From NCBI GenBank assembly GCA_049860595.1, contig CP187551.1: DNA of 64,000 nucleotides; one strand, 5' to 3'. The notes under the pieces are model-generated. The model was given only the letters and a program-made list of their open reading frames with translations. It had not been told where the DNA came from and did not search any database. The DNA is from Methanocaldococcus sp. 16A (lineage in GTDB: Archaea; AGJL01; Methanococci; Methanococcales; Methanocaldococcaceae). Both the position numbers and the translations under genes were made by a program. Position 1 is the stretch's first letter; each line of letters begins with the position of its first letter. Positions 5,532 to 45,863 of this stretch are shown here, in pieces.

Positions 5532-6533
5532 TTATTCATCTCTTACTCTTTTAGCAACTTCTTCAGCCATTTCAAATGTATTTAAGTTTCCTCCTAAGTC
5601 AGGTGTTGTTAAACCTAAAGCCAAAACTTCCTCCAATGCTTTCTCAACTTTATCTGCAGCTTCATACTCTCCTAAGTATCTAAGCATTAAAACAGCACTT
5701 AATATTGTAGCTGTTGGATTGGCAATTTTCTTTCCAGCAATATCTGGAGCTGAACCATGAACTGGCTCAAATAATCCATGCTCATCTCCTATGTTTGCTG
5801 AAGGAGCTAATCCCAACCCTCCAACAGTTCCAGCAGCTCCATCTGATAAGATATCTCCAAACAAATTAGATGTAACAACAACATCAAACACTTGTGGTTT
5901 AGTTATGATATACATGTTCATTGCATCTATATAGTAATCTTCAGCTTTTATATCATCATATTCTTCAGCAACTTTGTAAAATACCCTCTTAAATAATCCA
6001 TCAGTTAATTTTAAGACATTTGCCTTATGAGCACAGGTAACCTTTCCTTCTTTACCCATCTTCTTTCTTTCTCTTGCCAAATTAAATGCAAATCTAAATA
6101 TTCTCTCACAAGCCTTTTCAGTAATAACTCTTGTAGCTATTGTAACCCCTTCATCAATCTCTGCCTCTATTCCTTTATACAATCCTTCAGTGTTTTCTCT
6201 CACAATTATATAATCAATATCAGGTCTTAAGCATTTAACTCCTTTATAAGCTTTTACTGGTCTTACATTGGCATAGGTGTCTAAGATATGCCTCAATTTA
6301 ACAATAACATCTGCCGCTGTTTCTCCAGCAGCTCCAAATAAAACAGCATCACAATCTAAGGCAGTTTCAATAGTTTCTTCTGGTAATGCTTTTCCAGTTC
6401 TTTTATAAACTTCATCTCCAGCCTCAGCATAAACAAACTCAAATGGTAATCCTGTAGCTTCTAAAACTTTTATTGTTGCAGGAACTACTTCTTTCCCTAT
6501 TCCATCTCCTTCTATAACACATATCTTATGCAT
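5532..6533 (-). CDS. leuB: 3-isopropylmalate/3-methylmalate dehydrogenase
   Basis: GDGIG, RENTEG, NLFGDILSD, EPVHGSAPDIAG. Confidence 0.85.
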   Translation of the reverse strand: MHKICVIEGDGIGKEVVPATIKVLEATGLPFEFVYAEAGDEVYKRTGKALPEETIETALDCDAVLFGAAGETAADVIVKLRHILDTYANVRPVKAYKGVKCLRPDIDYIIVRENTEGLYKGIEAEIDEGVTIATRVITEKACERIFRFAFNLARERKKMGKEGKVTCAHKANVLKLTDGLFKRVFYKVAEEYDDIKAEDYYIDAMNMYIITKPQVFDVVVTSNLFGDILSDGAAGTVGGLGLAPSANIGDEHGLFEPVHGSAPDIAGKKIANPTATILSAVLMLRYLGEYEAADKVEKALEEVLALGLTTPDLGGNLNTFEMAEEVAKRVRDE

Positions 6534-6642
6534 AATCATCACCAACATTTTTATTGTAATTAATTATATATTTCCTTAGCAAAAGTAATAATACTACAAA
6601 CTCTTTTAAAATATTTACTTAATCATTTACTAGGGGGATGTT

Positions 6643-12907: not shown

Positions 12908-13495
12908 ATGGTTTTAAAATCCAAAGAAGAGTTTAACAACGATTTTATAAACGAAATTATAGAAACTGGAAAAGATATTTTGGGGGAGGGGCATGTTGCC
13001 TCTTTTAAAGCTTGCTATCAATGTGGGACATGCACTGGAAGCTGTCCAAGTGGTAGAATAACTGCTTTTAAGACTAGAAAATTAATAAAATACGCTCAGT
13101 TTGGAATGAGAAAATTTGCTGTAGAAAGTGAGGATTTATGGATGTGTACTACATGCTATGAATGCTATGAAAGATGCCCAAGAGAAGTGAAGATTACAGA
13201 CATAATTAAAGTAATTAGGAATATCGCCGCAAGAGAAGGAAGAATGACAGAATCTCATAAAAAAACTGCATTATATGTATTTAAAACTGGACATGCTGTC
13301 CCAATTAATGAAGAAATAAAAAAGGCAAGGAAATCTATAGGTTTAACTGAGGTTCCACCAACAACACACAAATATCCTGAAGCATTAGAGATTGTTAGAG
13401 AAATTATGAAGGATTTAAACTTTTGTGATATGGTTGGGATATGCACTGAGACAATGCAATTAAAACCTGTTGAATGGAAAGACATGTCAGAATAA
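12908..13495 (+). CDS. hdrC: Heterodisulfide reductase subunit C
   Basis: [29 protein letters not shown]. Confidence 0.93.
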
Positions 13496-13509
13496 ATAAG
13501 GTGAATTTT

Positions 13510-14391
13510 ATGGAATTTGCTTTTTTCTTAGGATGTATAGCACCAAATAGGTATCCGGGTATAGAGAAAGCCACATATACAGCATTAGAAAAATTGGAAA
13601 TAAAGTTGCATCCATTTGAAAAGGCTTCATGTTGCCCAGCTCCAGGGGTTTTTGGTTCTTTTGACCTAAAAACATGGCTTGCTTTAGCGGCGAGAAATTT
13701 GTGTGTTGCAGAAGAGATGGGCTTAGATATCATAACAATATGCAATGGATGCTACGGTTCATTGTTCGAAGCAAATCACATCCTTCAAGAGAATGAAAAA
13801 GCCAGAAATATGGTAAATAAAGTTTTATCAAAATATGGATTGGAATATAAAGGGACTGTTAAAGTTAGACACCTACCAGAGGTCCTTTACTTTGACTTAG
13901 GTGTTGATGCAATAAGGGAAAAAGTAAAAAAGCCATTAAATATAGATGTTGCAGTGCATTATGGTTGCCATTACTTAAAACCAACTGATATAAAGCATTT
14001 AGAGGGTTCTGAAAGACCAAAGTCGTTTGATGAACTTGTTGAGGCACTTGGAGCTAAGTCAATAAATTATAAAGATAAAAACATGTGCTGTGGAGCAGGG
14101 GGAGGGGTTAGGGCAAGAAACCTTGATGTTGCTCTACAAATGACTGAAACAAAATTAAGAAATATAAAAGAAGCAGGAGCAGATTGTATCACAGACGTTT
14201 GCCCATTCTGCCACTTACAGTTTGATAGAGGGCAGGTAGAGATAAAAGAGAAGTTTGGTAGAGAATATAACATTCCAGTAATTCACTATTCCCAGCTTTT
14301 AGGATTAGCTATTGGAATGTCACCAAAAGATGTTGCATTAGATTTGCATTTTATATCAACTGAACCATTAATCGAGAAACTTGGATTGTAA
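13510..14391 (+). CDS. hdrB: Heterodisulfide reductase subunit B
   Basis: [43 protein letters not shown]. Confidence 0.95.
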
Positions 14392-20206: not shown

Positions 20207-20779
20207 ATGCTAAAAATTGCATGGGGAATAACTGGATGTGGGGATAAACTTCCAGAAGTTGTTGAAATAATGAGAAATTTAAAAAATAAGTATAATTTAG
20301 ATATTGACGTATATTTATCAAAAAATGCAAAGATTGTTGTAAAGTGGTATAAACTTTGGCAAGTTTTAGAAGATGAGTTTTATGATTTAAGGGTTGAGGT
20401 TAATGCAAACTCTCCATTTTTGGTAGGAAAATTACAAACTGGAAAGTATGATTTATTTTTAGTAGCTCCAGCAACGGCAAATACAACAGCAAAGATTGCC
20501 TATGGTATAGCAGATACATTAATAACCAACTCAGTTGCCCAAGCAATGAAGGCGAGAGTTCCTGTCTATATCTTCCCACCAGATAATAAAAAAGGAAAAA
20601 TAGAAACAATCCTTCCAGGAAATAAAAAATTAACATTATACATGAGAGATGTTGATGTTGAAAATGTTGAAAAAATTAGAAGAATGGAAGGAATTGAAGT
20701 TTTAGATAAACCAGAAGATATAGAGAAGGTTATTTTAAAGCATATAGAAATGAAAAAGCAGAAAGAAAAAGAAGAATAA
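20207..20779 (+). CDS. afpA: Archaeoflavoprotein AfpA
   Basis: AWGITGCG, PATANTTAKIA.GIADTL. Confidence 0.85.
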   Translation: MLKIAWGITGCGDKLPEVVEIMRNLKNKYNLDIDVYLSKNAKIVVKWYKLWQVLEDEFYDLRVEVNANSPFLVGKLQTGKYDLFLVAPATANTTAKIAYGIADTLITNSVAQAMKARVPVYIFPPDNKKGKIETILPGNKKLTLYMRDVDVENVEKIRRMEGIEVLDKPEDIEKVILKHIEMKKQKEKEE

Positions 20780-20951
20780 ATTTTAATAATTTTTTATTTT
20801 ACTAAATCTATTAATCTAAATTCATTATTTTAATGTGAATATCGTTTTCAATAAAATTTTTGGAGACGATTTTCAAACCGTTAATGTTATTTATTCGTTA
20901 CTATATTAATGATTATCGTAAATCAAGTTAAAAATATACTTGGTGATAGGT

Positions 20952-22826
20952 ATGAAAAACTGCATCGCTGCCATACCAGAAATTAAAGAGATGGTTGAAA
21001 AGGCAAAGTTAAAAGGTATTGAAACTCCTCACACAAGATTCCCAAATCAATTTCCAAAATGTCCTTATGGATTAAAGGGGGTTTACTGTATATTATGTGC
21101 TAACGGACCTTGTAGGATAACTGAAAAAACTCCTTATGGTGTTTGTGGAGCTACAGCAGATGTTATAGTTGCAAGAAACCTCTGCAGAGCTGTTGCTGCT
21201 GGAGCTTCATGTTATGTTCACTGTGCTGAAAACGCTGCAAGAGCATTATTGTCAGCAGGTAAAGGAGAAGGTAATTATGAAATAAGAAATGAGAAAAAAT
21301 TAAGATTTTTAGCAAAAAAACTTGGCTTTGATGCAAATAAAGATGCTAAGCAGTTGGCTGTTGAAGTTGCTGAGTTCATATTAGAGGATATGTATAAACC
21401 AAGATGGGAAAAGAGTGAATTAGTCCCTAAATTATGTCCAGAAAAGAGATTAGAAGTATTTAAAAAGTTAGATATCCTTCCAGGAGGAGCAAAAGGAGAG
21501 ATTGTTGATGCATTAACAAAGACTTCAACAAACTTAAACAGCAATCCAATGGATTTGTTGGTTCATTGCCTTAGATTAGGATTACATGCTGGATTTACAG
21601 GGCTTTTGATGACATGTTGGTTGAATGACATATTATTTGGCTCACCAAAGATTACAGTTGTAGAAAATGGGTTTAGCTCAGTTAAGCCAAACAACGTAAA
21701 TATTATGATAACAGGACACCAGCATGCATTAATTCAGCCATTATGTGAAGCAGCAATGGAAGAAGATTTAATAAAAATGGCAAAAGAAGCAGGAGCTGAG
21801 GAAATTAAGATTATTGGAGCTACATGTAATGGACAAGATATGGAGACAAGAATTGCTCATTTACCAGAAAGCTTTGTTGGTTACATAGCTAACAACTTTA
21901 CAACAGAGCCATTAGTAGCTACTGGATTAATTGACGCTGTAGTTTCAGAATTCAACTGTACATTCCATGGATTGAAGTTTGTTGCTGAAAAAACCAAAAC
22001 AAAATTAATCTGTATTGACGACATGGCTTACATTGAAGGAGCTGAATACATCCCATGGGAGCCAGAAAATGCAAAAGAAAAAGCAAGAGAGATAATTAAG
22101 AAAGCAATTGAAGCATTTAAAGAGAGGAAGAATATACAGAAAGATTACTATGACACAAAAGTTAAATCAGTTGTTGGAGTTGGAGAAGAGTCATTAGTTG
22201 AGTTCTTAGGAGGTAGTGTAAAGCCATTAATTGATTTAATAGCCAAAGGAAAGATTAAAGGAGTCGTTGGAGTCGTTGGTTGCTCTAATATAGCAAGTGG
22301 AGGACATGATAATGTAATTGTTACATTAACAAAAGAGCTCATCAAGAGAGATATCTTAGTCTTAGCAGGAGGTTGTGTAAATAGTCCATTGAAACACGCA
22401 GGCCTCTTTAATCCTGAAAGTGCTGAATTGGCAGGAGAGAACTTAAAAGAGGTTTGTAAGAGCTTAGGAATTCCTCCAGTATTAAACTTTGGAGCATGTT
22501 TGAGTATTGCAAGAATTGAACAGGTTGCTGTTGCAATTGCTGAAGAATTGGGAGTTGATATCCCAGATTTACCAGTTGCAGCTTCAGCACCTCAGTGGTT
22601 AGAGGAGCAAGCGTTAGCAGATGCAACTTATGCAATAGATATGGGTTTCACCGTCCACGTTTCACCGGTTCCATTTGTTACTGGCAGTGAGTTAGTAACA
22701 AAGGTCTTAACAGAGGCTGTTGAAGGCTTAACAGGAGGTAAATTAATTCCTGAGCCAAATCCATACAAAGCCGCTGATATCTTAGAGAATGTAATTATGG
22801 AGAAGAGAAAGAAATTAGGGATCTAA
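20952..22826 (+). CDS. cooS: Ni-CO dehydrogenase family protein (CooS-type, non-canonical active site)
   Basis: C..G..G..C..C..GPC...CG clusters; C-cluster ligands GHQ, TC, NC, GC, GC, GAC. Confidence 0.9.
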   Translation: MKNCIAAIPEIKEMVEKAKLKGIETPHTRFPNQFPKCPYGLKGVYCILCANGPCRITEKTPYGVCGATADVIVARNLCRAVAAGASCYVHCAENAARALLSAGKGEGNYEIRNEKKLRFLAKKLGFDANKDAKQLAVEVAEFILEDMYKPRWEKSELVPKLCPEKRLEVFKKLDILPGGAKGEIVDALTKTSTNLNSNPMDLLVHCLRLGLHAGFTGLLMTCWLNDILFGSPKITVVENGFSSVKPNNVNIMITGHQHALIQPLCEAAMEEDLIKMAKEAGAEEIKIIGATCNGQDMETRIAHLPESFVGYIANNFTTEPLVATGLIDAVVSEFNCTFHGLKFVAEKTKTKLICIDDMAYIEGAEYIPWEPENAKEKAREIIKKAIEAFKERKNIQKDYYDTKVKSVVGVGEESLVEFLGGSVKPLIDLIAKGKIKGVVGVVGCSNIASGGHDNVIVTLTKELIKRDILVLAGGCVNSPLKHAGLFNPESAELAGENLKEVCKSLGIPPVLNFGACLSIARIEQVAVAIAEELGVDIPDLPVAASAPQWLEEQALADATYAIDMGFTVHVSPVPFVTGSELVTKVLTEAVEGLTGGKLIPEPNPYKAADILENVIMEKRKKLGI

Positions 22827-22896
22827 ATTTCTAATTCAGATTTTTTAATTTTAAATCTTTTTCTTTATTTAAATAAAAATTTAATTAGGTGGAATT

Positions 22897-23793
22897 ATGA
22901 AAATTAGAGGGTTTGAGAGCTCAATGATGGGGAGAGATATAGATTTTATTCCCCCAGCAATGACAAGATTATGTTGCTTAAATGAAATTTCACATGCATT
23001 AGCAGGAGTTATGGCTATTGAGAAAGCTTATAATATATCTATTCCAAATGAAGGGCAGTATTTGAGAGAAATTGCAAGATTGGGGGAGATTGTTGAAGTA
23101 GATGCAATAAAGTTAGATGAATTCATAGATACAGATAAATTAGCAGATATTGGAAACAAAATAAAATCAATCTTAGGAAAAAAAGGAAAATATTTAGCAG
23201 TTGGAGGAGTCTTAGAAAATATAAGTGAAAAAAGAAAAGAAAAATTAATAGATTTAGCAAAAGAGGGATTAAGCTTAGTTGATAAAGATTTTGTTAAGTT
23301 AGTTGATGAGAGAAAGAAAAAGATACCACTACCAGATGTTAATTTAATTGATGGTTACAACTTTGATGTTAATAAAGTAGAAACAAACGGATTACCTAAA
23401 ACTGCTCTTTATGATGGAAAAGCAGTTTATAGTGGAGCTTTAGCAAGAATGTATAAAGAAGGATTAATAAACTCAAAAAATATGTGGGATGTATTATCTT
23501 CAAGGATGATTGAAATAGAATTCTGCTTAAATAAAATTATCATGCTTTTAAACAAATTAAAATTAACTCATCCATACATGGAGCCAATTATAAGGGATGG
23601 AAAGGCTGTTGGGGAAGTTGTTATAGAAGGAGGTGAAGGAATCATTTATCACAAAGTTGAATTACTTGGAAGAGAGATTTTGGATTACACAATATTAACA
23701 AGTGAAAACTTTAACAAAGCAGTATTAGATGGAATAAACAATGAGGAAGCAAAAAGAATCATCCAGCTTTGTGAAAGATGTTACTATTTATAA
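22897..23793 (+). CDS. Shortened, degenerate [NiFe]-hydrogenase large-subunit-like protein (FrhA/VhuA-like)
   Basis: RGFE....GR, RLCC....H, GALARM, EG..G...H, T..NF, LCERC; only 298 aa. Confidence 0.75.
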   Translation: MKIRGFESSMMGRDIDFIPPAMTRLCCLNEISHALAGVMAIEKAYNISIPNEGQYLREIARLGEIVEVDAIKLDEFIDTDKLADIGNKIKSILGKKGKYLAVGGVLENISEKRKEKLIDLAKEGLSLVDKDFVKLVDERKKKIPLPDVNLIDGYNFDVNKVETNGLPKTALYDGKAVYSGALARMYKEGLINSKNMWDVLSSRMIEIEFCLNKIIMLLNKLKLTHPYMEPIIRDGKAVGEVVIEGGEGIIYHKVELLGREILDYTILTSENFNKAVLDGINNEEAKRIIQLCERCYYL

Positions 23794-23819
23794 ATATTTT
23801 AGCATAAAGAGGTGATTTT

Positions 23820-24479
23820 ATGACCGGATGCGGTTCTTGTGGCAAGATTATCAAAAATATTGAAAAGAAATATTACAACAAATTAAAAGAAAAAGGCATT
23901 GTGTTGGTTGGAGGCGCTGTAAATTTAGATGATGATGAAGAAGTTAAGAAAATAAAGGAAATTAGAAAGAATGCAAAGATATTAATTGCTGTTGGTAGCT
24001 GTGCTGTAAGTGGGGGTTTCCAAAGAATGCTTATTGGATTAGAGAATGGATTTCCACAAAGATTTGTTAAAGTTGGAGATGTTGTTAAGGTAGATTATGC
24101 AATAATTGGCTGCCCACCAGATGAAGAAGAGGTAGAAAAAGTAGTGAGAGCCGTTATTGAAAAAGATACTGCAATAGTTGATTCATATTTAATACTAAAA
24201 CCTTACGAAATTATTGCTGGAAAACCAATTATTGATGCTTACATGAAAGTTAATGAGGTTTTATTAACTTCAAATAAAGAGTTATGTTTAGGATGTGATG
24301 ATAAACCAATAAATGATGAATTCTGCACTGGTTGTGGTACATGCGTTGCTAAATGTCCAGCAAACGCTTTAACAATTGATGAAAAGCCAAAAGTCAATAT
24401 AAGTAAGTGTATTAAGTGTGGTACTTGTTTCTTTAACTGTATAAGAGTAAAAGAGGCACTACCGAGCGAAGCGAGGTAG
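23820..24479 (+). CDS. Hydrogenase small-subunit-like Fe-S protein (FrhG-like)
   Basis: CGSC, AVGSCA.SGG, GCPP, C-terminal 2x[4Fe-4S] motifs. Confidence 0.8.
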   Translation: MTGCGSCGKIIKNIEKKYYNKLKEKGIVLVGGAVNLDDDEEVKKIKEIRKNAKILIAVGSCAVSGGFQRMLIGLENGFPQRFVKVGDVVKVDYAIIGCPPDEEEVEKVVRAVIEKDTAIVDSYLILKPYEIIAGKPIIDAYMKVNEVLLTSNKELCLGCDDKPINDEFCTGCGTCVAKCPANALTIDEKPKVNISKCIKCGTCFFNCIRVKEALPSEAR

Positions 24480-24566
24480 TGCATCCTGGGTATCCCAATA
24501 GGGCAAAGCCCTATGGGTGTTGGAACATGTTTCTTTAACTGTATAAGAGTTAGAGGTGAGGCATAA
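24420..24566 (+). repeat. GC-rich double-hairpin element flanked by duplicated gene 3' end
   Basis: About 30-bp direct repeats at 24420 and 24522; hairpins GCACTACC/GGTAGTGC and ATAGGGC-AAA-GCCCTAT. Confidence 0.85.
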
Positions 24567-25351
24567 TGAAATATCTCTCAGTAAAATCAAAATTAAATAT
24601 TGAAGCGCAAGATGGGGGATTCACAACAACCTTTTTAGGTTATTGTTTAGAGAGTGGATTATTAGATGCCGTAGTAGTTGTTAGAGATAAAAATTGGAAA
24701 CCACTTGCTTATTTAGCCACAAACACCGTTGAATTATTAGAATCACCAAAAAGTAAATACTCTATCTCACCAAACAACAAGTTGTTAGAATATGCTACTG
24801 AAAATTATGATAAAGTTGGATTGGTTGGTTTGCCTTGCCATATATTAGGAGGATTGCAGTTTGATTTAGCTTTAAAAGTTGGTTTATTCTGCACCAAAAA
24901 TTTCCACTATGAAACAATAAAAAACATTATAAAAGAGAGATTTGGACTTGATATGGATGAGGTTGTAAAAATGAACATTACAAAAGGAAAATTTGTTGTT
25001 GAAACCTTAAAAAGTACTGATTTAGTCCATTCAGAAAGAGTAGTTTATGAAATTCCAATAAAAGAGATTGAAAAGTTCTGCAACTTAGGATGTAGGGTAT
25101 GTACTGACTTCTCAGCAAAATATGCTGATGTATCAGTTGGAAGTGTTGGTAGTGAGGACGGGTGGAACACTATAATTATAAGAAACAAGAAGGTTGAAGA
25201 TATAATAAATGAAATGGTTGAGAAGGGATTAATTGAAGTTAAAGAAACTGTTGATATTAAAGCGGTTGAAAAATTAGAGAATATTAAAAAGAAAAATGAA
25301 GAAATTAACAAATGTTCTGCATACTTTGCTGTATGCCCAGCTCTATTCTAA
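24566..25351 (+). CDS. F420-binding FrhB/FdhB-like subunit
   Basis: QDGG..T, SKY, VGLPCH, GLFC..NF, C..C.DF...ADVSVGSVGS..GW. Confidence 0.88.
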   Translation: MKYLSVKSKLNIEAQDGGFTTTFLGYCLESGLLDAVVVVRDKNWKPLAYLATNTVELLESPKSKYSISPNNKLLEYATENYDKVGLVGLPCHILGGLQFDLALKVGLFCTKNFHYETIKNIIKERFGLDMDEVVKMNITKGKFVVETLKSTDLVHSERVVYEIPIKEIEKFCNLGCRVCTDFSAKYADVSVGSVGSEDGWNTIIIRNKKVEDIINEMVEKGLIEVKETVDIKAVEKLENIKKKNEEINKCSAYFAVCPALF

Positions 25352-25460
25352 CATGTAATGCTTCTATTTTTATTTATTTAACCATAAAAAATATAAATTT
25401 AAACTTAATAAAATTTTTTACATTTTTTACTTTTTTATAATTTTATTTAGAGATGAGAAT

Positions 25461-26081
25461 ATACTAATTAAAAAAATTGAAGCACTATAAAATTCAGAGA
25501 TTAAAGATATTATTGATAAAAGACTCCAAGAATTTAAATCTTTTAAAAATAAATACAATGAAGAATGGTTTAAAGAACTATGTTTTTGCATCTTAACAGC
25601 TAATTTTACAGCTGAAGGAGGAATAAAAATACAGAAAGAAATAGGGGATGGATTTTTAACACTTCCAAGAGAAGAATTAGAAGAAAAATTAAAAAATTTG
25701 GGGCATAGATTTTATAGAAAAAGAGCAGAATATATTGTTTTAGCTCGAAGATTTAAAAATATCAAAGATATCGTTGAGAGTTTTGAAAATGAAAAGATAG
25801 CGAGAGAGTTTTTAGTGAGAAATATAAAAGGGATTGGATATAAGGAAGCAAGCCACTTTTTGAGAAATGTTGGCTATGACGATATTGCCCTAATTTACAG
25901 ACATATACTAAGAGAGCTTTATGAAAACAACTACATTGATGAGATTCCAAAAACATTGAGTAGGAAAAAATATTTAAAAATTGAAAATATATTGAGAGAT
26001 ATTGGGGAGGATGTAGATTTAAAACTCTCTGAATTAGATTTGTATATATGGTATTTAAGGACAGGAAAAGTTTTAAAGTGA
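25461..26081 (+). pseudogene. ogg: 8-oxoguanine DNA glycosylase/AP lyase (Ogg2) pseudogene
   Basis: Frame extends upstream (ELCFCILTAN) with ATA in place of a start and in-frame TAA at 25488; HhH KGIGYKEASHFLRNVG present but DRH is YRH. Confidence 0.85.
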
Positions 26082-26682: not shown

Positions 26683-27006
26683 ATGGTGACAAAAGTAGCA
26701 ATTTTAAGATGTGATAGTGCAGCAAAGACCTGCCCTGCAGTTGGATGTGTAACAGCAGCATTAAACAAAAAGGACACATTTAAAGACTATGAGGATGTTG
26801 AGTTCTTAACTATAATAACATGTGGAGGATGTCCAGGAAGATTAGGATTGAATCAAATAAAGCAATTAATAGAAAAGCATGGATTGGAAGTTGTTCATTT
26901 TGCAACCTGCATGAGTGCATTAAAACCAAAATGCAGATATGCTGAAGAAATGAAGGAAGAGATTGAAAAGATGGGAGCAAAGGTTGTTATGGGCTCACAC
27001 TTTTAA
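26683..27006 (+). CDS. CGGC domain protein
   Basis: C......CP...C, TCGGCPG, HFATC. Confidence 0.85.
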   Translation: MVTKVAILRCDSAAKTCPAVGCVTAALNKKDTFKDYEDVEFLTIITCGGCPGRLGLNQIKQLIEKHGLEVVHFATCMSALKPKCRYAEEMKEEIEKMGAKVVMGSHF

Positions 27007-27062
27007 ATTAGAACTTTAATTTTTATAATTAGATGAATTTAAATGTTTAAATGGTGGTATTT

Positions 27063-27749
27063 ATGAAAATAACAAAATATAGAGTTGATGTTGACCAGGA
27101 TAAATGTATAGGTTATGAAGAATGTGGGCTTTGTATTAAAGCCTGTGAAGAAAATATTCTAATTCCAGACCCAGAAACTAAAAAAGTTAAGGTTAATAGA
27201 GAAAAAGAAGTTTATTGCGATGGAATAGGAACATGTTTGGACGTATGTCCAGTTAATGCAATAAAAATAACAAAAGAAGTAGTGGATGTTAATGAACATC
27301 AACAACATTCAGAACATAAATGCCCTGGCTCAATGGCAATGACTTTGAAAAGAGAAAAATCTGAAGAAGATAATGATGTAGAGCTAAGTTCAGAGCTAAT
27401 GAACTGGCCTATACAACTTCATCTATTAAATCCAATGGCTCCATATTTCAAAAATGCTGAACTTCTTATAGCAGCAGATTGTGTTCCATTTGCTTATGCT
27501 AATTTCCACAAAAAATTCTTAAAAGGAAAGGTTTTGGCTATTGGATGTCCTAAATTGGATGACACTTCAGGATATGCTGAAAAAATAAGGGCAATTGTTA
27601 AATTAAACAACATTAAAAAAGTTGATGTTGTGATAATGAGCGTTCCTTGCTGTCATGGTTTGTATGCTTTGGTAAAAAAAGCACTTGAGGGAATTGATTG
27701 TGAAATAAAAAGACACATTATTTCAATTAATGGAGAAGTGTTGGAGTAA
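27063..27749 (+). CDS. Hcp-associated 4Fe-4S protein
   Basis: Ferredoxin motifs plus CPGS, WPIQLHL, AADC, GCPKLD, VPCC. Confidence 0.8.
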   Translation: MKITKYRVDVDQDKCIGYEECGLCIKACEENILIPDPETKKVKVNREKEVYCDGIGTCLDVCPVNAIKITKEVVDVNEHQQHSEHKCPGSMAMTLKREKSEEDNDVELSSELMNWPIQLHLLNPMAPYFKNAELLIAADCVPFAYANFHKKFLKGKVLAIGCPKLDDTSGYAEKIRAIVKLNNIKKVDVVIMSVPCCHGLYALVKKALEGIDCEIKRHIISINGEVLE

Positions 27750-27945
27750 TACTAAAACTAAAACTATTCATAATAATTATATTTAACATACTCACAACTA
27801 TGAGTACTAATTGTCTAAAATTCCAAAGGAAAGTTATCAGAAATCTATTTATATTATTAAAATAAAATAATTAATCGTAAAGCACCAATCTAAAATGTCC
27901 TCGTAAAGGATTGGCTTACAATTAAAAAATTTAATGGGTGAAAGT

Positions 27946-29592
27946 ATGGAATACACTCCAAGACCAACAAATATGTTTTGCTATCAATGCCAAGAGGCTG
28001 CAAGAAATGAGGGATGTACAGTAGTGGGGGTTTGTGGGAAGAGAGATAATGTAGCAAACCTTCAAGATTTATTAGTTTATACTATAAAAGGTTTATGCTA
28101 TGTATGTAATAAAGGTAACTACTTAGATGATGAAGTTATGGAATATATCCCAAAGGCGTTATTTGTAACAATAACAAATGTCAATTTTGACGATCAAGAT
28201 GTGATAGATTGGATAAAGAAAGGAGTAGAGTTAAGAGAAAAAGTTATTGAAAAAGCCAATTTAAATAAAGAAGAACTTCCTCACTGTGCTACATGGACTT
28301 ATAATGATGAGAATGACATAATAGAATTATCAAAAGCTAAGGAAGTTAGTGTTTTAGCAGAAGATAATGAAGATATAAGGTCTTTAAAAGAACTCATAAC
28401 TTATGGAATTAAGGGAATTGGGGCTTATTTAAGCCATGCAATGCATCTCGGTTATAATAATGAGGAAATCCACAAATTTATAGTTAAAGCAATGACAAAA
28501 CTCATTGAATGCAATGATGTAGATGAACTCTTCAATTTAGCAATGGAAACAGGTAAGTATGCAGTAGATACATTGGCATTATTAGATAAAGCAAATACTG
28601 AAACTTACGGACATCCAGAAATAACAGAAGTTAATTTAGGAGTTAGAGACAGACCAGGAATATTGATTAGTGGGCATGATTTAAAAGATTTAGAGCAGTT
28701 ATTAGAGCAAACTAAAGGAACTGGAGTTGATGTCTATACACACTGTGAGATGTTACCAGCACATTACTATCCATTCTTCAAGAAGTATGAGCATTTCGTT
28801 GGAAACTACGGAGGTTCATGGCCACACCAAACAGAAGAGTTTGAGAAATTTAACGGCCCAATAGTCATGACAACAAACTGTTTAGTTCCACCAAAAGATT
28901 CATACAAAGATAGAGTTTATGTCACTGGGGCTGTTGGATATCCAGGATTGAAGAGAATTCCTGTAAGAGAAGATGGAACTAAAGATTTCTCAGAAGTCAT
29001 TGAACATGCTAAGAAATGTAAGCCACCAACACCACTTGAAGAAGGAAAAATCGTTGGAGGATTTGCACACAATCAAGTATTGGCATTGGCAGATAAGATA
29101 ATTGAAGCAGTTAAAAGCGGAAAGATAAGAAAATTCGTTGTAATGGCTGGATGTGATGGAAGACACAAGACAAGAGAATACTACACTGAATTTGCTAAGA
29201 AGTTACCAAAAGACACAGTTATATTAACATGTGGATGTGCAAAATACAGATTCATTAAGTTAGATTTAGGAGACATTGATGGAATTCCAAGGGTATTGGA
29301 TGCTGGGCAATGTAATGATAGCTATTCATTAGCAGTAGTTGCATTGAAATTGAAAGAAGTCCTTGGATTAGATGACATAAATGAACTCCCAATTGCTTAT
29401 AACATTGCATGGTATGAGCAAAAAGCAGTTGCTGTATTATTGGCATTGCTCTACTTAGGAGTTAAGAATATAGTATTAGGCCCGACAATTCCTGCTTTCT
29501 TATCACCAAATGTAGTGAAAGTATTAGTTGAAAAGTTTGGAATCTCAACAATCTCAACAGTTGATGAAGATATTAAGAGATTAGTTGGATAA
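27946..29592 (+). CDS. hcp: Hybrid cluster protein (hydroxylamine/NO reductase)
   Basis: MFCYQCQE...GC...GVCGK, SGHDL, H.EMLPAH, GCDG, DAGQCND, WYEQKA. Confidence 0.96.
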
Positions 29593-45335: not shown

Positions 45336-45863
45336 TTAATCCTGATTTTTCAATGTGTTGTAGAACTTTTTCAGATAATTAATATGTTTACAGTTATCAC
45401 TCTGACAGATAACACACCACCAATGACCTCTATTGCTTCTAAAAACGTCTCCTAAATGCTCTCCGTTGGAATCAAAGAACGAAAATATAAATCCTCCAAG
45501 TTTATCTTCTTTCCATCTGATTTCAAACCCTATCCTATCTACCGGGTAATACTTAGTAGCAATTTTCTTTTTAGGTAATTGTTCGAAAACACTCGAAAAA
45601 CTCAAATCGAATATTTCTGGGGCTAATCTTTTTAATATCGCTAATCCTTTTGAGGTAAATGAATATATAACCTTATGTCCTGCTCTTTCCCTCTTCATTA
45701 TGTTTAGAGCTGAACACAACCTTAAAAAAGAGCTTGCAAGACCTTTCGATATATTTAAATTCTCTGCGAGTGATTGTGGATAAGTTGTGCCACGTATTAA
45801 CACATAATGTAAAATGGCTTTTCTAAATATAGTTGATATGATTTCGTATGGTAATCTTTCCAT
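45336..45863 (-). CDS. wHTH protein with C-terminal SWIM-like zinc finger
   Basis: TYPQSLAE.LNISKG...; W.C..C....CKH. Confidence 0.7.
   Translation of the reverse strand: MERLPYEIISTIFRKAILHYVLIRGTTYPQSLAENLNISKGLASSFLRLCSALNIMKRERAGHKVIYSFTSKGLAILKRLAPEIFDLSFSSVFEQLPKKKIATKYYPVDRIGFEIRWKEDKLGGFIFSFFDSNGEHLGDVFRSNRGHWWCVICQSDNCKHINYLKKFYNTLKNQD

Follow-up and report, generated by a model that had tools for sequence, protein, structure and literature searches.

Results

The cooS operon and its atypical CooS

The stretch of DNA analysed here, referred to as the window, comprises 64,000 nucleotides (G000:C1:800001-864000; G+C content of about 30%) of the 1.62-Mb genome of Methanocaldococcus sp. 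16A. Four open reading frames (ORFs) on the same (+) strand occupy positions 20940-25351 and encode CooS, the catalytic subunit of a carbon monoxide dehydrogenase that contains Ni (Ni-CODH), followed by a trio of proteins related to the FrhA, FrhG and FrhB subunits of F420-reducing hydrogenase (Table 1). This arrangement, proposed in an earlier note on the sequence, was recovered both from the ORFs and from profile matches. The nearest named relatives of the operon products come from Methanocaldococcus and Methanotorris. The operon probably encodes an undescribed F420-linked redox enzyme of oxygen-stress defence in heat-loving methanogens.

Table 1. Coordinates of the cooS operon and of the features directly upstream of it in the window.
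Feature	Position	Strand	Description
AfpA archaeoflavoprotein gene	20207..20779	+	TIGR02699, 309 bits; directly upstream of cooS
Conserved cooS upstream region	20800..20935	+	TATA-rich promoter-like stretch with repeated CGT-centred boxes (10-genome alignment)
cooS	20952..22826	+	Ni-CODH catalytic subunit, clade C, structural group C-3; TIGR01702, 956 bits (cut-off 478)
FrhA-like, 298 AA	22897..23793	+	Shrunken [NiFe] large-subunit fold without a predicted Ni-Fe site
FrhG-like, 219 AA	23820..24479	+	Iron-sulfur subunit; one proximal-type and two ferredoxin-type [4Fe-4S] sites
FrhB-like, 261 AA	24566..25351	+	Predicted F420/FAD/[4Fe-4S] subunit

Translation of cooS may start at TTG 20940 (628 AA) or at ATG 20952 (624 AA), with the stop codon ending at 22826; a GGTGA ribosome site precedes the ATG, at which some orthologues start. 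The best solved relative of the product is 6t7j, to which it aligns end to end (E 5.5e-132). We compared CooS with its relatives in an alignment of 38 rows (A6), made up of 11 orthologues from Methanococci, 4 Methanopyri-like sequences and 23 relatives from databases; residues are numbered on the 624-AA form. The C-cluster ligands (H256, C292, C336, C444, C475, C516) and the B-cluster ligands (C46, C49, C54, C65) expected of a Ni-CODH are invariant in all rows, and the D-cluster Cys pair and the acid-base His and Lys are missing from the window's CooS. At the D site C37 alone remains, with Tyr45 at the position of the relatives' second Cys, and Tyr88 and Gln553 occupy the positions of the His/Lys pair found in active CODHs.

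The Tyr/Gln pair, the single D-site Cys and the archaeal host (Methanocaldococcus/Methanotorris) place the protein in structural group C-3. In the accessible text of the paper that defined this group (Inoue 2019, PMC6344411; cited below to the same extent), Table 2 gives its C-cluster ligands as H C C C C C, and the group is recorded from Methanocaldococcus and Methanotorris only. The earlier note was thus right to call this CooS atypical, and the type was already in print.

Two irregular CooS sequences were encountered. In G014 the cooS gene (L039 5843-7930, G014:C1:645063-647117) is a 702-AA frame to which the query matched twice with overlap (1-300 and 243-628), which may mean that some 60 residues around the C-cluster His are duplicated in frame within the gene, or may be an assembly artefact. 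A database CooS named Methanopyrus kandleri (P0104) carries about 80 divergent, Arg/Gly-rich residues at A6 columns ~385-470 and then rejoins its relatives, which looks like a pair of frameshifts in the record.

The FrhA-like protein has a large-subunit fold

The FrhA-like chain is shorter than a usual large subunit, and this shortness is genuine and not due to a frameshift, since only four open codons lie upstream, AGGTGG stands ahead of the ATG, and residues 1-298 are covered by 14/14 full-length orthologues. Profile PF00374 matched residues 4-62 only (35.6 bits, cut-off 25.8), the frhA profile TIGR03295 reached 83.1 bits against a cut-off of 392.5, and a weak NuoD match was seen (E 3.5e-4). 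The AlphaFold2 (AF2) model built on alignment A2 (81 rows) had a pLDDT of 94.4 and a pTM of 0.93, and its top Foldseek match was FrhA 9r51_A (E 4.8e-18, TMq 0.85). The model therefore predicts with confidence a [NiFe] large-subunit fold; of the other features of a group 3a FrhA, the four-Cys set, RxEGH with the active-site Arg, and the curated profile score were absent.

Alignment of the orthologues (A1, 14 rows) and of the wider family (A2) shows how the metal site was altered. C26 is the first Cys of RxCGxC, and C292 and C295 are the DPCxxC pair, so that three of the four Ni-Fe cysteines are kept. The earlier note had given the length of 298 AA and the motifs RLCCLNE and QLCERC, all of which were confirmed; its description of the motifs as eroded was too strong, because these three Cys are conserved. 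The second N-terminal, bridging Cys is Asn29 (Thr in G039; A1, A2), position 27 is Cys, Tyr or His across the Methanococci (A1), and the His after CxxC is Leu298. The N-terminal 37 residues including RxEGH are gone, together with the HxHxxH histidines, and Glu247 takes the place of Arg in PRGxxxH, the large-subunit motif whose Arg lies above the active site. The chain stops three residues past the last Cys, at the end position of mature large subunits, and has no C-terminal extension, so that a processing protease would be unnecessary.

Since the RxEGH segment is absent, the bridging Cys is Asn and the active-site Arg is Glu, the sequence predicts that a normal Ni-Fe centre cannot be assembled and that the protein is no hydrogenase. 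Public records name the trio F420-reducing hydrogenase subunits, and a canonical selenocysteine FruA (682 bits) is encoded elsewhere in the same genome.

The family appears to be small. A HMMER search of 1.84 billion representatives returned 85 proteins at E <= 0.001 and three at E <= 1e-30, these three being the family itself, a fusion protein from G004 and a fragment. Seven other matches were examined: six have both canonical Cys motifs, and P0047 has the first and ends before the second. A word-indexed search of 5.8 billion proteins returned six proteins, all of the FrhA-like family, and a look-up in the ESM Atlas gave ordinary hydrogenase clusters only. The G004 fusion (L047 8001-9188; 395 AA) joins an FrhA-like part, 45% identical to that of the window and with the motifs RICHLNE and FCERCHY, to the proximal-cluster half of an FrhG-like protein without the ferredoxin domain. 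Its gene adjoins an ArsR-type gene and a radical SAM gene.

The FrhG-like and FrhB-like subunits retain Fe-S ligands and conserved family blocks

The FrhG-like protein contains PF01058 and Fer4 domains and aligns to FrhG of 9r51 and 3zfs. All the Cys expected of the cluster ligands are present, and the score for the curated equivalog TIGR03294 stayed below its cut-off (124.7 vs. 245.5 bits), with about 45 N-terminal profile positions missing. Fourteen Cys are invariant in 15/15 sequences (C4, C7, C61, C98, C156, C159, C169, C172, C175, C179, C197, C200, C203, C207). Assigned by homology, C4, C7, C61 and C98 would hold the proximal cluster and the others would serve two ferredoxin-type clusters, in agreement with the earlier view that this subunit keeps its Fe-S ligands.

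The FrhB-like protein matched PF04432 (137.8 bits, E 3.4e-40) and PF04422 (61.8 bits, E 7e-17). It reached the cut-off of NF006807 (307.2 bits vs. 269), but not that of the stricter frhB equivalog TIGR03289 (196.6 vs. 331.5), and its similarity to FrhB is about the same as that to Fsr in the F420H2-oxidase half (7np8, E 2.7e-42). C91, C109, C176, C179, C250 and the blocks QDGG and SKY.ISPN are invariant in both archaeal lineages described below. On its sequence it is a bona fide FrhB-family protein with predicted F420 and FAD binding; the FAD/F420 motifs claimed for it earlier hold at the level of family membership and conserved blocks. Profile and structure matches, together with the lost motifs, also uphold the view that the trio is of F420-hydrogenase origin without hydrogenase function. 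All iron-sulfur (FeS) ligands of the FrhG-like and FrhB-like proteins being invariant, the putative FeS wire is intact.

Selection and co-occurrence in the Methanococci

Ratios of nonsynonymous to synonymous divergence (dN/dS) were calculated pairwise by the Nei-Gojobori method for 12 genomes, with pairs at dS 0.05-1.5 taken as usable. The median was 0.043 for CooS (66/66 pairs usable) and likewise for AfpA (55/55 pairs), 0.093 for FrhA-like (57/66), 0.067 for FrhG-like (65/66) and 0.100 for FrhB-like (56/66). All four operon genes are under purifying selection. Neutral decay, for which the earlier note had named a dN/dS near 1, is contradicted by the trio's medians of 0.07-0.10.

Among 40 Methanococci genomes, the 298-AA FrhA-like protein occurs in 14, namely 12/17 of genus g1 (the window's genome counted) and 2/2 of genus g5, and the C-3 CooS was found in exactly the same 14. 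Neither protein was detected in G002, G003, G009 (85% complete) or G015. The order CooS, FrhA-like, FrhG-like, FrhB-like was seen in 11/11 orthologous loci fetched, with AfpA directly upstream of cooS in 10/11. The synteny survey suggested in the earlier note therefore ties the trio to CooS, through the same 14/40 genomes and a gene order kept at these loci and at the four loci of a second lineage.

A second archaeal lineage and loss of the D-cluster

The range outside the Methanococci rests on two scans, one of a single genome per species with a CooS relative (16 loci) and one of metagenomes (15 loci), since a phylum-level search covered no genomes beyond the 40 already found at class level. 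The same four-gene order, with gaps of 7-49 bases, was present in 4/4 loci from Methanopyri-like metagenome-assembled genomes (L051-L054; 64-70% G+C). Identity to the window's proteins was 56% for CooS, 22% for FrhA-like, 35% for FrhG-like and 34-40% for FrhB-like, at lengths of 363-369 AA (FrhA-like), 238-241 AA (FrhG-like) and 300-304 AA (FrhB-like). The Methanopyri-like CooS also has a single D-site Cys, with Trp for the second, and Tyr and Gln at the acid-base positions; sharing these traits, it would extend group C-3. In the FrhA-like protein the N-terminal strands are kept and TGEPGE replaces RxEGH. Both N-terminal Cys are kept, the third Cys is Ser, and the chain ends exactly at the His. 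The Cys retained are thus the first, second and fourth, vs. the first, third and fourth in the Methanococci, and common to both lineages are the Arg to Glu change and an Arg before the last Cys.

Loss of the second D-cluster Cys (to Tyr or Trp) is common to both Frh-linked lineages, and every other row of A6 keeps CC. No Frh-like genes were found at the 27 loci of D-cluster-intact CooS relatives (12 genome-scan and 15 metagenome loci). This coincidence of D-cluster loss with the gain of Frh-like partners is the strongest argument for a dedicated wire.

When 77 large subunits were placed in a quick maximum-likelihood tree, the nine pseudo forms grouped together (SH-aLRT 86) beside the FrhA/FruA clade, on long branches. 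The Methanopyri-like FrhA-like protein matches canonical FruA better than it matches its counterpart in the window. In view of the long branches and this closer match, a single origin of the two lineages is possible and not firm.

The neighbours of the Methanopyri-like loci differ from those of the window, and the loci lie outside any large island. In L051 a rubrerythrin-like gene and DUF166 precede the operon, and a protein with an ArsR-type helix-turn-helix (HTH) and a V4R domain is encoded two genes downstream (6145-6537, 13215-13985); we take this ArsR-HTH plus V4R architecture to be that of the methanogen redox regulator MsvR. An Ogg-like gene lies within about 3 kb in 3/8 longer metagenome loci (L083, L084, L089) with a D-cluster-intact clade C CooS, and L084 carries a peroxiredoxin besides. 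The association of CooS with an oxidative-damage neighbourhood thus recurs outside the Methanococci.

A putative promoter region and RNA data

Across 10 genomes (alignment A3) the region upstream of cooS contains long invariant blocks, e.g. ACCGTTAATG..TATTTATTCGTTA..TAATGATTATCGTAAA, and is far better conserved than synonymous sites, the synonymous divergence of the adjacent genes being 0.4-0.9. Judged by this conservation, the boxes around the TATA-like stretch are probably the site of a regulator. TATCGT-type words or CGT boxes did not cluster upstream of the other stress genes of the island, and a search across the island for a shared promoter box, ACGATTTTCAA with <=2 mismatches, gave 41 matches vs. 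48 expected. The motif TTCG-N7-9-CGAA, presumably the MsvR-type box, matched the window once (0.22 expected by chance); the site, at 45582, is a long way from the operon. For a counterpart of the Methanopyri-like MsvR-like regulator, the window's genome gave partial V4R-domain matches only.

The spacer between cooS and the FrhA-like gene (22827-22896; 70 bases) is AT-rich, with runs of T; a TATA-like TTTAAATA lies in it some 25 bases ahead of the ATG, so that the trio may also have a promoter of its own. The corresponding spacer is shorter in relatives (24-49 bases in the Methanopyri-like loci). In one hydrothermal-vent metatranscriptome, contigs 85-99% identical to the window cover 20936-25167 and span the cooS/FrhA-like and FrhG-like/FrhB-like junctions; 7% of the words sampled were present in this run. 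In the accessible text of a preprint (10.1101/2025.04.25.650746), cooS transcripts assigned to Methanocaldococcus are described as abundant at 80 °C and are interpreted as Wood-Ljungdahl genes.

The operon lies in an oxidative-stress island

The operon is surrounded by genes for superoxide reductase, an MTH865-like protein, ferritin, a rubredoxin-like protein, peroxiredoxin, rubrerythrin and a DsrE-like protein, and by those for FprA, FMN reductase, AfpA, Ogg, a NikR-like regulator, a CGGC protein, a 2x[4Fe-4S] protein and Hcp. The earlier remark that FprA is a neighbour was therefore correct, the operon sitting in a stress island together with it. AfpA may be a functional neighbour of the cooS operon and is not counted as a part of the enzyme.

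The Hcp gene (hydroxylamine reductase family, 853 bits; window 26683-29592) is preceded by those of the CGGC-domain protein and of the 232-AA 2x[4Fe-4S] protein, which may be Hcp's own electron-donor set. The NikR-like regulator separates this set from the cooS operon. The Ogg (8-oxoguanine glycosylase) gene after the operon (25440-26081) looks broken in the window's genome: ATA stands at the orthologue's ATG, TAA at 25488-25490 replaces AAA of the orthologue, and the remaining frame is open to 26081.

Discussion

A candidate F420-linked CooS oxidoreductase

We propose that the four genes encode one F420-linked CooS oxidoreductase that would serve the surrounding oxidative-stress island, a reading for which we consider the evidence evenly poised. 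That CooS and the trio form an F420-linked complex is somewhat favoured by the sequence data, and CO to F420 as the physiological direction is a tentative choice, held with rather less than even confidence. What the analysis establishes is the gene content, the state of the motifs, the predicted fold, purifying selection, co-occurrence and a gene order kept in two archaeal classes; mutual binding of the proteins, the route of the electrons, the substrate and the direction are inferred.

CooS would be the catalytic head, with complete ligands for its Ni-Fe-S C-cluster and for its B-cluster. Its lost D-cluster would be the route by which other CooS pass electrons to ferredoxin or CooF. The FrhA-like protein, a cut-down fold, may act as an adaptor that holds the proximal-cluster domain of the FrhG-like protein. 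The latter would carry three [4Fe-4S] clusters, and the FrhB-like protein would bind F420 and carry FAD and one [4Fe-4S]. Electrons from CO or another low-potential donor would then pass from the C-cluster to the B-cluster, the FrhG-like clusters, the FrhB-like cluster and FAD, and finally to the acceptor F420. The F420H2 formed could be supplied to FprA, an F420H2 oxidase, and to other stress enzymes when oxygen enters. Such an enzyme would correspond, in methanogens, to the clade C CooS-CooF-FNOR of bacteria, F420 taking the role of NAD(P) and the FrhG-like and FrhB-like proteins that of a zeta subunit or of CooF plus FNOR.

Several observations weigh against this proposal. The complex of four proteins is deduced from gene linkage, and a joint prediction of CooS and FrhG-like, both entered as alignments, scored 0.00, which counts neither way. 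The FeS chain of a normal Frh ends at the large subunit, and to dock, CooS would have to gain access to a cluster that is normally buried. A pure scaffold role leaves the three conserved Cys of the FrhA-like protein unexplained. In G039 (L046 5140-10324), AfpA and CooS are about 95% identical to those of the window (dS 0.9), and the FrhA-like, FrhG-like and FrhB-like proteins 57, 69 and 63% (dS 1.2-2.3), a mismatch that is unexpected for tightly co-evolving partners; comparison of these sequences points to separate histories, or to recombination with a break behind cooS, in the G039 cluster. The genome of G004 has no C-3 CooS, and no FrhB-like gene lies near its fusion, so that the FrhA-like/FrhG-like unit can exist without CooS. 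The vent RNA contigs, coming from one run, neither rank expression nor prove transcription and are weak evidence. The CO-oxidation direction is further weakened by the replacement of His/Lys by Tyr/Gln together with the low or no CO/CO2 activity that the eLife 2026 authors, in the accessible text of their survey (PMC13056359; cited below to the same extent), expect for clade C.

Alternative readings

The same architecture may also work in reverse, with F420H2 oxidised at the FrhB-like protein and a reactive nitrogen or oxygen compound (hydroxylamine, NO, N2O, peroxide and O2 are candidates) reduced at the modified CooS site, as in a detoxifying reductase analogous to Fsr. Its overall probability is on the low side, and it is nearly as likely as CO to F420, given the Tyr/Gln replacements and the reductant-consuming neighbours. 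The acid-base residues for fast CO/CO2 turnover are replaced (Tyr88, Gln553), the neighbours mostly use reductant (FprA, peroxiredoxin, rubrerythrin, superoxide reductase, Hcp), and the FrhB-like protein resembles FrhB and the F420H2-oxidising half of Fsr to the same degree. Ogg-like genes stand near 3/8 related CooS genes of other lineages, and the reference list of Inoue 2019 cites a Ni-CODH converted into a hydroxylamine reductase. Against reversal, all six C-cluster ligands including those of Ni are intact, which points to CO/CO2-type chemistry, and the clade C experiments quoted in PMC13056359 (T. kivui, C. autoethanogenum knock-outs) concern CO metabolism only; on these two grounds the direction from CO to F420 is favoured. 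Hcp with FeS partners of its own is, moreover, already encoded 2.5 kb downstream.

A different possibility, which we regard as unlikely, is that the FrhA-like pocket (Cys26, Cys292, Cys295, Glu247, Arg294) is a new metal or substrate site, either in a two-headed enzyme or with the FrhA-like/FrhG-like pair as the catalyst and CooS and the FrhB-like protein as donors. In its two-headed form, CO and/or F420H2 oxidation would drive a novel reduction at the repurposed pocket and the G004 fusion would be the minimal catalyst, a version to which we likewise attach a small probability. The three Cys are invariant or nearly so and under purifying selection, position 27 is limited to Cys, Tyr and His in the Methanococci, and the Glu for Arg together with the Arg before the last Cys is common to both lineages. 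In complex I a Ni-Fe pocket has turned into a substrate site, that of quinone. The G004 genome retains an FrhA-like protein fused to a proximal-cluster domain without CooS or FrhB-like, and the pocket may therefore have a role of its own. However, the lineages keep different Cys subsets, which fits a relaxed need for a defined metal site, the Glu-Arg pair could merely fill an empty pocket, and the fusion comes from one species only. The trio might also work independently of CooS, for instance as an F420H2:ferredoxin-type oxidoreductase, its adjacency reflecting shared regulation in the stress island. Binding to CooS being a deduction, the different divergence of the G039 trio from CooS and the 70-base AT-rich spacer with its TATA-like box before the FrhA-like gene would suit such independence, yet we think it improbable: co-presence and co-absence with CooS are strict, the same order with gaps of 7-49 bases recurs in Methanopyri-like loci outside large islands, and Frh-like genes are missing from the 27 loci of D-cluster-intact relatives. 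That the trio is a working H2-oxidising F420 hydrogenase, as its public names say, or a decaying pseudogene set is by far the least probable. Four defining large-subunit features are missing and the genome has its canonical FruA, and decay is opposed by the low dN/dS and by frames intact in 14 genomes. For practical purposes both forms of this reading are refuted.

Significance and relation to known systems

CODHs of clade C occur widely, and what they do in the cell is described as an open question in the accessible text of the current literature (PMC13056359, PMC6344411). According to Inoue 2019, [NiFe] hydrogenase catalytic subunits coexist only with CODH groups E-1, F-1 and F-2. The terms F420 and Frh do not occur in the available main text of that paper, nor do F420, Frh or Methanococc* in that of the 2026 eLife context survey (PMC13056359), the supplements of both lying outside the search. 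Our literature search found no description of a CooS and Frh-like partnership, which the supplements of PMC6344411 and PMC13056359 may list among neighbours, and no papers on MJ0725, MJ0726, MJ0727 or MJ0728. In the literature searched, the CooS type is therefore known, and its obligatory partnership with a hydrogenase-derived, F420-linked module that lacks Ni-Fe was not found. The loci offer a natural experiment, in which the D-cluster was lost exactly where the putative F420-linked wire was gained, in two archaeal classes. From this coincidence the redox partner can be predicted, and the function becomes open to direct test in a hyperthermophilic methanogen amenable to genetics. The finding also calls for a correction of annotation, both for genes named F420-reducing hydrogenase subunits and for Methanocaldococcus cooS transcripts read as Wood-Ljungdahl genes.

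Among known systems, the trio is most like FrhABG/FruABG of group 3a, with which it shares the three subunit types, the gene order, the best profile and structure matches and the full set of FeS ligands in the G and B subunits, and beside whose FrhA/FruA clade the pseudo large subunits are placed. Its large subunit has 298 AA instead of about 410 and lacks RxEGH, the bridging Cys, the active-site Arg and the C-terminal extension. The trio is linked to cooS, has no FrhD protease gene and scores below the FrhA, FrhG and FrhB equivalog cut-offs. Hydrogenase-derived pairs that keep a proximal-type cluster with a remodelled Ni-Fe pocket are known from complex I (NuoD/NuoB) and from Ehr-type proteins, which are members of membrane-bound group 4 lineages and retain none of the four Cys. 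In contrast, the trio goes back to soluble group 3, still has three of the Cys and shows no link to the membrane, the weak NuoD match being the sole trace of similarity. It would be a second, independent [NiFe] hydrogenase module, of the soluble group 3 lineage, that lost its metal site and was reused for electron transfer or as an adaptor. Fsr has a similar FrhB-like domain and is a model for an FrhB module feeding a detoxifying reductase, but it is a single polypeptide fused to a sirohaem sulfite reductase, without CooS or hydrogenase-like subunits.

The bacterial CooS-CooF-FNOR systems (Clostridium ljungdahlii, C. autoethanogenum and others) have a CooS that belongs to the same clade and likewise carries Tyr/Gln at the His/Lys positions; its partners are an FeS wire and a flavin-dependent hydride-carrier oxidoreductase, and it is linked to the oxygen response. 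Neighbours of clade C CooS include FeS proteins in 72% and NAD(P)/FAD oxidoreductases in 71% (PMC13056359), and the clade C-1 CooS-FNOR-CooF is O2-induced, and CO was proposed to supply the electrons with which O2 is detoxified (PMC6344411, where Whitham 2015 and Hillmann 2009 are cited). The operon described here differs in having F420 and an FrhB-like protein instead of NAD(P) and FNOR, in its lost D-cluster, and in a wire made of a hydrogenase small subunit with a dead large subunit, not of CooF. The wiring of a Ni-CODH through ferredoxin-type clusters to an FrhB-like FAD/[4Fe-4S] F420 reductase, which gene linkage suggests here, has a counterpart in the CODH of Ca. Ethanoperedens thermophilum (alpha2 epsilon2 zeta2), whose structure was solved and for which F420 reduction by CO was measured, as given in the accessible text of Lemaire et al. 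2024 (PMC11493965). That enzyme is the clade A Cdh of an acetyl-CoA decarbonylase/synthase; its ferredoxin domain and F420 reductase form one zeta subunit, and it has no hydrogenase-derived subunits.

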